Shown piece after piece: positions 35,301 through 37,621 of a stretch of DNA of 64,000 nucleotides. Position numbers: made by a program. Position 1 is the first letter of the stretch. Each line of letters begins with the position of its first letter. The DNA lies in assembly GCF_056746865.1 (NCBI RefSeq), contig NZ_CM163382.1. One strand, 5' to 3'.

Positions 35301-37621
35301 GCCAATAAACAGCTGCGCATGATCGATTAACGCACCAAGTTCCGGGAAGGTCACCTTTCCGGCCAGCGCCGTTACTGGTGGCGTCTGGCATCCCTGCGCA
35401 ATTTCATTGACGCAGACCAGATCGTCTTTATCTGGGCCGGACGTCAGAACGACTTCATAACCACGAGCATGTAAGGCATCAATCACAGCGGAAAACTTGG
35501 CGTTGTCCCAGCATTTGAAGATTTGCCGCGCCGTAGGTTGGATAACCACATAATTTTGTCCAACACCAGCGTGATCAAGTTCGCGACGCATACGTTTCCA
35601 GCTTGCAGGCGGGTAACTCATGGTTGTCTGCTTCACCAACGATTCAAGCCCCAATGGCGACAGCACGGATAAGTTACTTTCCACCACATTTCCACCCTGC
35701 AACGGCACCAAATGAGTGAAACTATTACGCCAAAAAGCAGCCTGCCGATGATGATAATCCTGGGAAATTTTCACACGGGCATTTAATAAGCGCACCAGTA
35801 TAGCAACCATCCATTGATCGGTAAGATTAACGATAAGGTCATACTTATTGGCACGTAATACCTTGATGAGATGAAAAAAGTTGGCAATTTTTTCTGCGGC
35901 TTTTGCTTTTTTATTTTTTATGCCGTAGAGCGCGTTAATCTCTGGATTTTCAGACAGGATCGGGATGGTGTCCTGATAAAGCAGCACATCGATTTTTGCG
36001 TCAGGGTAATTTTTTTTCAGCGAACTAATGACGGGAGTAGTTAATAACATATCCCCATGAAAACGCATCTTAATGAGCAAAATTCTTCGAAATGGCTTAT
36101 CCACAAGTAACTCTTTTTGTTGAGATTATCCGATTAAGGTGAAGCAGAAAAAGCACGCTACCGCCCCAGGCTCAACAGCTACCTGAATACTGATACCGCA
36201 CTGATATTGACGCGCTAGTGTATCACTTCTTTCGCGGCAATCCGACCCGAATGATTTTTAAGCACATTGTTGATTTTCAATAAAGAAATCAATCAAATAA
36301 AATCATTAGCAACCATATTCTTTCACTGTTGCTCTGCGATTCCTTCCTGCACGTACTGCAGAAATCAATGAATCGCATAAAAATACAAAAAAAGTATAGA
36401 TGTTCAGCAAGAATTGGCGGGTAAATTGCTATTTAAGTCAAAAACGGGAAAAGTAATGGTAAAGCCACAGCTAAATACATAGAATCCCCAGCACATCCAT
36501 AAGTCAGCTATTTACTATGCTCGAATTGCTTTACACCGCCCTTCTCTACCTTATTCAGCCGCTGATCTGGATACGGCTCTGGGTGCGCGGACGTAAGGCT
36601 CCGGCCTATCGAAAACGCTGGGGTGAACGTTACGGTTTTTACCGCCATCCGCTAAAACCAGGCGGCATTATGCTGCACTCCGTCTCCGTCGGTGAAACTC
36701 TGGCGGCGATCCCGTTGGTGCGCGCACTGCGTCATCGTTATCCTGATTTACCGATTACCGTAACAACCATGACGCCAACCGGTTCGGAGCGCGTACAATC
36801 GGCTTTCGGGAAGGATGTTCAGCACGTTTATCTGCCGTATGACCTGCCCGATGCACTTAATCGTTTCCTGAATAAAGTCGACCCTAAACTAGTGTTGATT
36901 ATGGAAACCGAACTATGGCCTAACCTGATTGCGGCGCTACATAAACGTAAAATTCCGCTGGTGATCGCTAACGCGCGACTCTCTGCCCGCTCGGCCGCAG
37001 GTTATGCCAAACTGGGCAAATTCGTCCGTCGCTTGCTGCGTCGTATTACGCTGATTGCTGCGCAAAATGAAGAAGATGGTGCACGTTTTGTATCACTGGG
37101 CGCAAAAAATAATCAGGTGACCGTTACCGGTAGCCTGAAATTCGATATTTCTGTAACGCCGCAACTGGCTGCTAAAGCAGTGACGCTGCGCCGCCAGTGG
37201 GCACCACACCGCCCGGTATGGATTGCCACCAGCACTCACGAAGGCGAAGAGAGTGTGGTGATCGCCGCACATCAGGCATTGTTACAGCAATTCCCGAATT
37301 TATTGCTCATCCTGGTACCCCGTCATCCGGAACGCTTCCCGGATGCGATTAACCTTGTCCGCCAGGCTGGACTAAGCTATATCACACGCTCTTCAGGGGA
37401 AGTCCCCTCCACCAGCACGCAGGTTGTGGTTGGCGATACGATGGGCGAGCTGATGTTACTGTATGGCATTGCCGATCTCGCCTTTGTTGGCGGTTCACTG
37501 GTTGAACGTGGTGGGCATAATCCGCTGGAAGCTGCCGCACACGCTATTCCGGTATTGATGGGGCCGCATACTTTTAACTTTAAAGACATTTGCGCGCGGC
37601 TGGAGCAGGCAAGCGGGCTGA

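Follow-up and report, generated by a model that had tools for sequence, protein, structure and literature searches.

A JUMPstart-embedded ops element in the leader of the waaQ lipopolysaccharide-core operon

In this study, we analysed a stretch of 64,000 nucleotides (64 kb, referred to below as the window) and found in it an exact copy of the 12-nt element GGCGGTAGCGTG on the minus strand at 36154..36165 (G1 = 36165, T6 = 36160, G12 = 36154). We conclude, with a probability of about 0.95, that this 12-mer is the ops (operon-polarity-suppressor) site of the waaQ (rfaQ) LPS-core operon and that it recruits RfaH. The presence, strand and position of the element, its non-random occurrence, its membership of the JUMPstart element, its conservation and the architecture of the operon behind it are documented below, and we found nothing in the sequence that speaks against this reading. 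The waaQ-leader ops, its mechanism and its role at the waaQ operon are already known; since they have been established by genetics, ChIP and structures, the site described here adds no new biology, and its confirmation is useful for a correct annotation of the leader.

The ops element and its immediate context

The match has no mismatches and is the single exact copy on both strands of the window, where 0.0066 copies would be expected by chance from the base composition; the first-pass annotation, which had placed a 12-nt ops core at 36154-36165, was therefore right on this point. The relaxed consensus GGCGGTAGnnTG has its sole match in the 64 kb window at the same site. The element lies on the sense (non-template) strand of waaQ (CDS 36104..35046, minus strand), with 49 nt between G12 at 36154 and the GTG start codon at 36104, and as no long ORF covers it, it is situated in the untranslated 5' leader. 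The earlier wording, according to which the core lies on the transcribed strand upstream of waaQ, holds for the upstream position, but the strand is strictly the non-template and not the template strand. The pause determinants T11-G12 and the G at -10, as well as the hairpin determinants, that is the C3:G8 pair with G5 and T6 in the loop, can be read directly from the element, which puts the pause position T11/U11 at 36155 on the minus strand. As in the consensus elemental pause (G-10 Y-1 G+1), G2 of ops is at -10, T11 at -1 and G12 at +1 when U11 is the RNA 3' end.

The term ops has been used for the first 8 nt only, GGCGGTAG, in some studies (PMC6358824, PMC8745692) and for the full 12-nt element in the RfaH structural and ChIP papers (PMC5995543, PMC9765446). 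The 8-mer is present in six copies in the 64 kb, compared with 1.33 expected from dinucleotide shuffles, and none of 100 shuffles reached six. The five copies other than that in the waaQ leader (8562, 41232, 43500 and 49807 on the plus strand and 55514 on the minus strand) all fall within long ORFs, three in sense and two in antisense orientation, so that the waaQ copy is the only one in the window outside a long ORF. We therefore rejected the idea that the excess is a sign of several ops sites; it is likely to stem from coding composition, which dinucleotide shuffles do not model, rather than from regulation. When one mismatch is allowed, a single further site appears in the window, at 41232 inside coaBC. 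This 11/12 ops-like sequence, GGCGGTAGCGTA (41232-41243, plus strand), is on the coaBC sense strand, is followed by TTTTT and lacks G12, the +1 G of the pause consensus. It is unlikely to be a second RfaH site, given its location inside coaBC, the missing G12 and the report that intragenic ops-like sites, 34 of them in CFT073, gave no RfaH signal (PMC9765446).

Because the 8-mer is over-represented and an 11/12 site occurs inside coaBC, ops-like strings evidently arise without RfaH function, and together with the 34 silent sites of CFT073 this could be taken to mean that the waaQ copy itself is a chance or vestigial match, or a generic RNA polymerase pause without RfaH, and that the waaQ operon is independent of ops in this strain. 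We give this explanation hardly any credence. The waaQ copy alone stands in an untranslated leader, it matches exactly at all 12 positions and forms part of a full JUMPstart, it hardly varies among thousands of E. coli genomes that diverge on either side of it, its position before waaQ is kept in distant genera, and the orthologous site has been found by experiment to be bound by RfaH (PMC9765446). A chance match is rejected on the expected copy number, the sole leader location and the full JUMPstart match.

The first-pass annotation can be extended in that the 12-mer belongs both to a JUMPstart element and to the homologue of the small RNA RirA. The 39-nt JUMPstart (36154..36192, minus strand; Rfam RF01707) has the ops 12-mer as its 3' end, and the covariance model scored 55.2 bits against a gathering threshold of 35 (E = 6e-10 for the whole window), with model positions 1-38 of 38 aligned. 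Read from 5' to 3', the element consists of CAGUAUU, a 5' arm CAGGU (36185-36181), a loop (36180-36172), a 3' arm GCCUG (36171-36167), a single G and ops; the two arms form a stem of 5 bp closing a 9-nt loop.

The waaQ leader

The ops element is contained in the 412 bp intergenic region between waaQ and the divergent gene waaA (36517-37794, plus strand; 905 bits, NCBIfam). Alignment to MG1655, in which rirA is annotated at 3808166-3808238, places the homologue of K-12 RirA (b4760) at 36139..36210 on the minus strand. By hand count, the 72-nt stretch 36210-36139 differs from K-12 rirA by five substitutions and one indel over 73 nt; the indel is a T-run that is 1 nt shorter here, and the JUMPstart-ops core is identical. 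RirA has been reported to start at the same 5' end as the waaQ mRNA (PMC5736990, PMC8745692). Based on this and on the rirA alignment, we infer that waaQ transcription starts at 36210, which would put ops at about +46 to +57.

A candidate extended -10 element, TGATACACT (TGnTACACT), was read at 36217..36225 on the minus strand and ends 6 nt upstream of this putative start. In waaQ leaders from at least seven genera (Escherichia, Citrobacter, Kluyvera, Silvania, Pluralibacter, Cedecea and Shimwellia), TGATACACT is conserved with unchanged spacing to ops, and it may be the -10 element of the waaQ promoter. A consensus scan yielded a second promoter-like site at 36280..36251 on the minus strand.

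The 49-nt spacer between ops and the start codon (36105..36153, minus strand) has a T-run directly after ops and ends with a weak Shine-Dalgarno-like AAGAG (36115-36111) located 6 nt before the waaQ GTG. In CFT073, the spacing from ops to the start codon has been given as 40-67 nt for wzx, kps and rfa, while the ops of hly is about 600 nt from its start codon, as opposed to the 49 nt at waaQ here (PMC9765446). An intrinsic terminator after ops, which would define the 3' end of RirA, was not found in the consensus scan. The discrete RNA of about 73 nt that binds RfaH is known from the K-12 literature (PMC5736990, PMC6358824), and the evidence for the RirA phenotypes covered in reviews comes largely from overexpression. 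In the non-K-12 genomes listed, the waaQ leader carries no RefSeq annotation.

The waaQ operon

The operon downstream of the leader comprises seven genes and about 7 kb (29163..36104, minus strand), as judged from ORFs, NCBIfam matches and the RefSeq annotation of a genome that is identical over the queried 2 kb; the rfaQ annotation was taken from E. coli genomes 100% identical over 35000-37000. The first gene, waaQ (rfaQ, 36104-35046), matches NF007742, the NCBIfam equivalog model for RfaQ, a heptosyltransferase of the LPS core, with 708.6 bits against a cut-off of 467. It is followed on the minus strand, with ORF and NCBIfam/RefSeq support for each gene, by waaG (35049-33925), waaP (33941-33135 as an ORF), a waaI/O-type 3-alpha-galactosyltransferase gene (33092-32085), waaY (32059-31352), a gene for a waaJ-type UDP-glucose:(galactosyl)LPS alpha-1,2-glucosyltransferase (31327-30314) and a GlcNAc-transferase gene (30305-29163). 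Neighbouring genes overlap or are at most 42 nt apart. The operon had been described earlier as a long outer-core operon; long it is, but it is not confined to the outer core, as it also encodes the inner-core enzymes WaaQ, WaaP and WaaY. We take its gene order to be that of the R3 core type.

The distal half of the operon has a GC content of 30-37%, compared with a window mean of 49%. Such AT-rich distal genes fit the class of genes that are bound and silenced by H-NS and require RfaH. The same low GC content of 30-37% was seen over the region from about 28000 to 33000, which holds waaL and the distal part of the waaQ operon and is the variable, probably horizontally exchanged part of the core locus. 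A terminator-like A-run/12-bp hairpin/T-run (29134..29160) was picked up by a pattern scan in the 37-nt gap between the end of the convergent waaL at 29125 and the end of the operon at 29163. It is likely to be a bidirectional terminator common to both core operons and to mark the end of the transcription unit, although sites found by this type of pattern match were no more frequent in the window than in shuffled sequence.

The strand of the element, its leader position, the AT-rich operon behind it and a JUMPstart-ops sequence identical to that of K-12 all lend support to the proposal of the first-pass annotation that the operon is under RfaH control. The rfaH gene itself lies outside the window and is presumably present, being a standard E. 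coli gene.

Conservation of the element

When compared with the ops of waaQ (rfaQ) in K-12 and CFT073, no difference is seen in the 12-mer or in the rest of the 39-nt JUMPstart, and the divergent waaA, the downstream order waaQ-waaG-waaP and TGATACACT are shared as well, with a start-codon distance that is about equal. The differences from K-12 are found outside the JUMPstart, where the leader is about 83% identical, and in the distal genes, which here are of the waaI/O-Y-J-D type and not the K-12 set. Among complete E. coli genomes, the 226-nt leader was found in 5,424 of 5,426 and falls into two classes, with 4,401 genomes at 99% identity or above and 955, K-12 among them, at 80-90%; the leader of the window thus belongs to the majority class. 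Despite flank divergence of about 17%, JUMPstart and ops are identical between the leader classes. Of the 5,426 genomes, 4,907 have the 39-nt element with 100% identity and a further 496 have it with one mismatch; the one such variant that was sampled carries an A to G substitution in the stem, where pairing is preserved as G-U, and its ops is unaltered.

A pattern scan across species, with one genome per species, returned at least 120 JUMPstart-ops elements. Among the matches listed, the element is directly upstream of a waaQ homologue in at least 31 loci, and since these were selected by the motif, they speak for conserved placement and not for the prevalence of ops. They come from Escherichia, Citrobacter, Kluyvera, Kosakonia, Pluralibacter, Shimwellia, Silvania, Cedecea, Intestinirhabdus, Pectobacterium, Symbiopectobacterium, Serratia, Brenneria and Affinibrenneria. 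Across these 31 listed loci, WaaQ is 51-96% identical, with values of 51-80% in the genera other than its own, of which there are about 15 among the matches listed. In 27 of the 31 listed leaders, ops and the start codon are 39-53 nt apart, and a divergent waaA was seen in 20 of the 31 within the sequence stretch examined.

Exact JUMPstart-ops sequences were also seen on six short contigs labelled Arthrobacter, Erysipelotrichia, Wohlfahrtiimonas, Peptococcaceae, Flavobacterium and Lachnospiraceae (L021, L030, L048, L073, L112 and L117), five of which are MAGs. Contamination from enterobacteria or mis-binning is the most likely explanation, rather than a true presence outside the Enterobacterales.

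JUMPstart elements precede not only LPS-core genes but also O-antigen (rfb/wzx), capsule (kps, cps), haemolysin (hly) and conjugation (tra) operons. The non-template ops consensus, a long 5' leader, the RfaH mechanism and the stem-loop upstream are the same in these systems (RF01707; PMC2864571; PMC9765446), whereas the downstream cargo differs.

The JUMPstart stem and a possible function at the RNA level

The pair 9-25 of the stem was left unfixed by the search pattern and could hence be examined for covariation. Among the at least 120 elements listed, it is T:A in 77, A:T in 23, G:T in 9 and G:C in 4, and it is paired in 94% compared with 55% expected if the two sides were independent, in a set of sequences that are related and motif-selected. 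The stem of the window reads CAGGU/GCCUG, whereas in most of the at least 120 elements the covarying position is T:A. There are exactly 12 nt from the end of the stem to U11, at which the ops pause occurs, a distance that is typical of exit-channel pause hairpins of the his type. The ops pause has been described as stabilised by a non-template DNA hairpin and backtracking and not by an RNA hairpin (PMC5995543, PMC11001881).

Tentatively, the stem might form a hairpin in the nascent RNA and in this way modulate pausing at ops, backtracking or the loading of RfaH or the ribosome, or it might give RirA its RfaH-binding fold. We consider such a role unlikely; if it existed, it would account for the conservation of the upstream half of JUMPstart although the 12-nt ops suffices for RfaH dependence in reporters. 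In the literature examined, no role of the JUMPstart RNA stem in pausing is reported, and one study just notes the conserved stem-loop (PMC2864571). An unusually stable RNA structure in the leader or the RirA region was not supported by comparison with shuffled sequence (z = -0.66 for the RirA equivalent; +0.47). A weak Rfam match to MIR5284 at 36305-36407 (19.7 bits against a cut-off of 93) was dismissed as noise.

A stronger version of this idea is that the conserved element works mainly at the RNA level, through the JUMPstart stem-loop and ops in the nascent leader or through a processed or terminated RirA of 72-73 nt. In this view, the RNA would titrate RfaH or remodel it, or would influence the pause as a hairpin in the exit channel, and the DNA-level ops would be secondary. 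The conserved and covarying pairing of the stem (94% versus 55% at pair 9-25), its retention in the sampled one-mismatch variant of E. coli, the placement of its end 12 nt before U11 and the annotation of the K-12 homologue of 36210-36139 as the sRNA RirA are all in line with such a function. Against its being the main one, however, the 12-nt ops alone is sufficient on a lux reporter and the structures show that it is the non-template DNA hairpin that is read (PMC5995543, PMC11001881); in addition, the predicted fold of the RirA equivalent is no more stable than that of shuffled sequences, and the RirA phenotypes in the reviews derive from overexpression. We regard it as very improbable that the element acts mainly in this manner, and a function of the JUMPstart hairpin or RirA is best seen as a layer added to DNA-level recruitment of RfaH by ops rather than as an alternative to it.

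Probable RfaH recruitment at the waaQ ops

The way in which ops recruits RfaH has been worked out in detail. The element has been described as an exemplar of the consensus pause; T11-G12 is common to the validated targets, and U11 is where RNA polymerase pauses (PMC5995543). A small hairpin closed by C3:G8 forms in the non-template strand, and from it RfaH reads G5 and the flipped-out T6 (PMC5995543, PMC11001881). Base-by-base mutagenesis of ops has been carried out (PMC5995543), as has cryo-EM of the ops-paused complex (PMC11001881), and in a lux reporter the 12-nt ops is enough on its own to make expression RfaH-dependent (PMC5995543). Binding frees the KOW domain of RfaH, which refolds into a beta-barrel and binds the ribosome (PMC11001881, PMC8745692). 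RfaH then rides the polymerase through the transcription unit, excludes NusG and counters arrest promoted by H-NS/StpA, and because NusG is excluded, Rho-dependent termination is inhibited (PMC9765446).

For the waaQ operon, RfaH binding and distal dependence have been demonstrated on the identical element in CFT073 and K-12 (PMC9765446, PMC6358824). In CFT073, the RfaH ChIP-seq signal begins at the single leader ops of rfa, polymerase occupancy drops toward the end of the rfa operon in a delta-rfaH strain, and the RfaH-dependent travelling ratio is at most 0.1-0.34 for wzx, kps and rfa (PMC9765446). A delta-rfaH mutation leads to a truncated LPS core (PMC6358824, PMC8745692), which has been attributed to compromised expression of the waaQ operon (PMC6358824).

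Pausing, hairpin formation, RfaH binding and distal RfaH dependence at the site described here are carried over from this work on identical or orthologous sequence, and by its identity with the strains studied experimentally, the waaQ operon of this strain is expected to be RfaH-dependent as well. Transcription would start about 45 nt upstream of ops, probably at 36210, and RNA polymerase would pause on reaching U11 of ops at 36155, as the T11/G12 of ops make it a consensus-type pause. Within the open transcription bubble, a small hairpin would form in the non-template GGCGGTAGCGTG through C3:G8 and present G5 and T6. The polymerase modified by RfaH, with NusG excluded, would resist pausing, Rho-dependent termination and H-NS-promoted arrest, and it would help to bring a ribosome to the weak waaQ start; the weak AAGAG and the GTG start codon agree with reports that ribosome recruitment relies on RfaH. 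As an outcome, the AT-rich distal genes of the operon of about 7 kb would be expressed. By controlling the waaQ operon, RfaH and ops determine how complete the LPS core is and, by way of the core, affect outer-membrane integrity, O-antigen attachment, resistance to serum and antimicrobials, phage receptors and virulence.

Other features of the window

The segment from about 45700 to 64000, downstream of yicC, holds an integrase-bearing element that resembles a phage satellite or prophage, with genes for a tyrosine integrase, ash, an icd-like protein, a DUF5906/primase-like protein, a DNA ejection protein and a lytic transglycosylase. Rfam matches within it are int-alpA (47686-47752), isrK (52219-52295) and C4 antisense RNA (52320-52407). 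The region from 42 to 64 kb is covered to at least 80% in only one of 5,426 E. coli genomes, and the coordinates of the element are approximate as the match was joined from four pieces. As the 64 kb window was found to hold no tRNA genes, a tRNA inside it cannot be the attachment site. In the rph/yicC area, a strong match to the Hfq-binding sRNA STnc490 was obtained at 44357-44480 on the minus strand (Rfam, 146 bits against a cut-off of 56). On the other side of the core locus, positions 1-24000 are annotated in identical genomes as carrying a YadA-family autotransporter adhesin, an ESPR-domain protein, the transposase of the IS3-like IS1397, lldP and gpmM.
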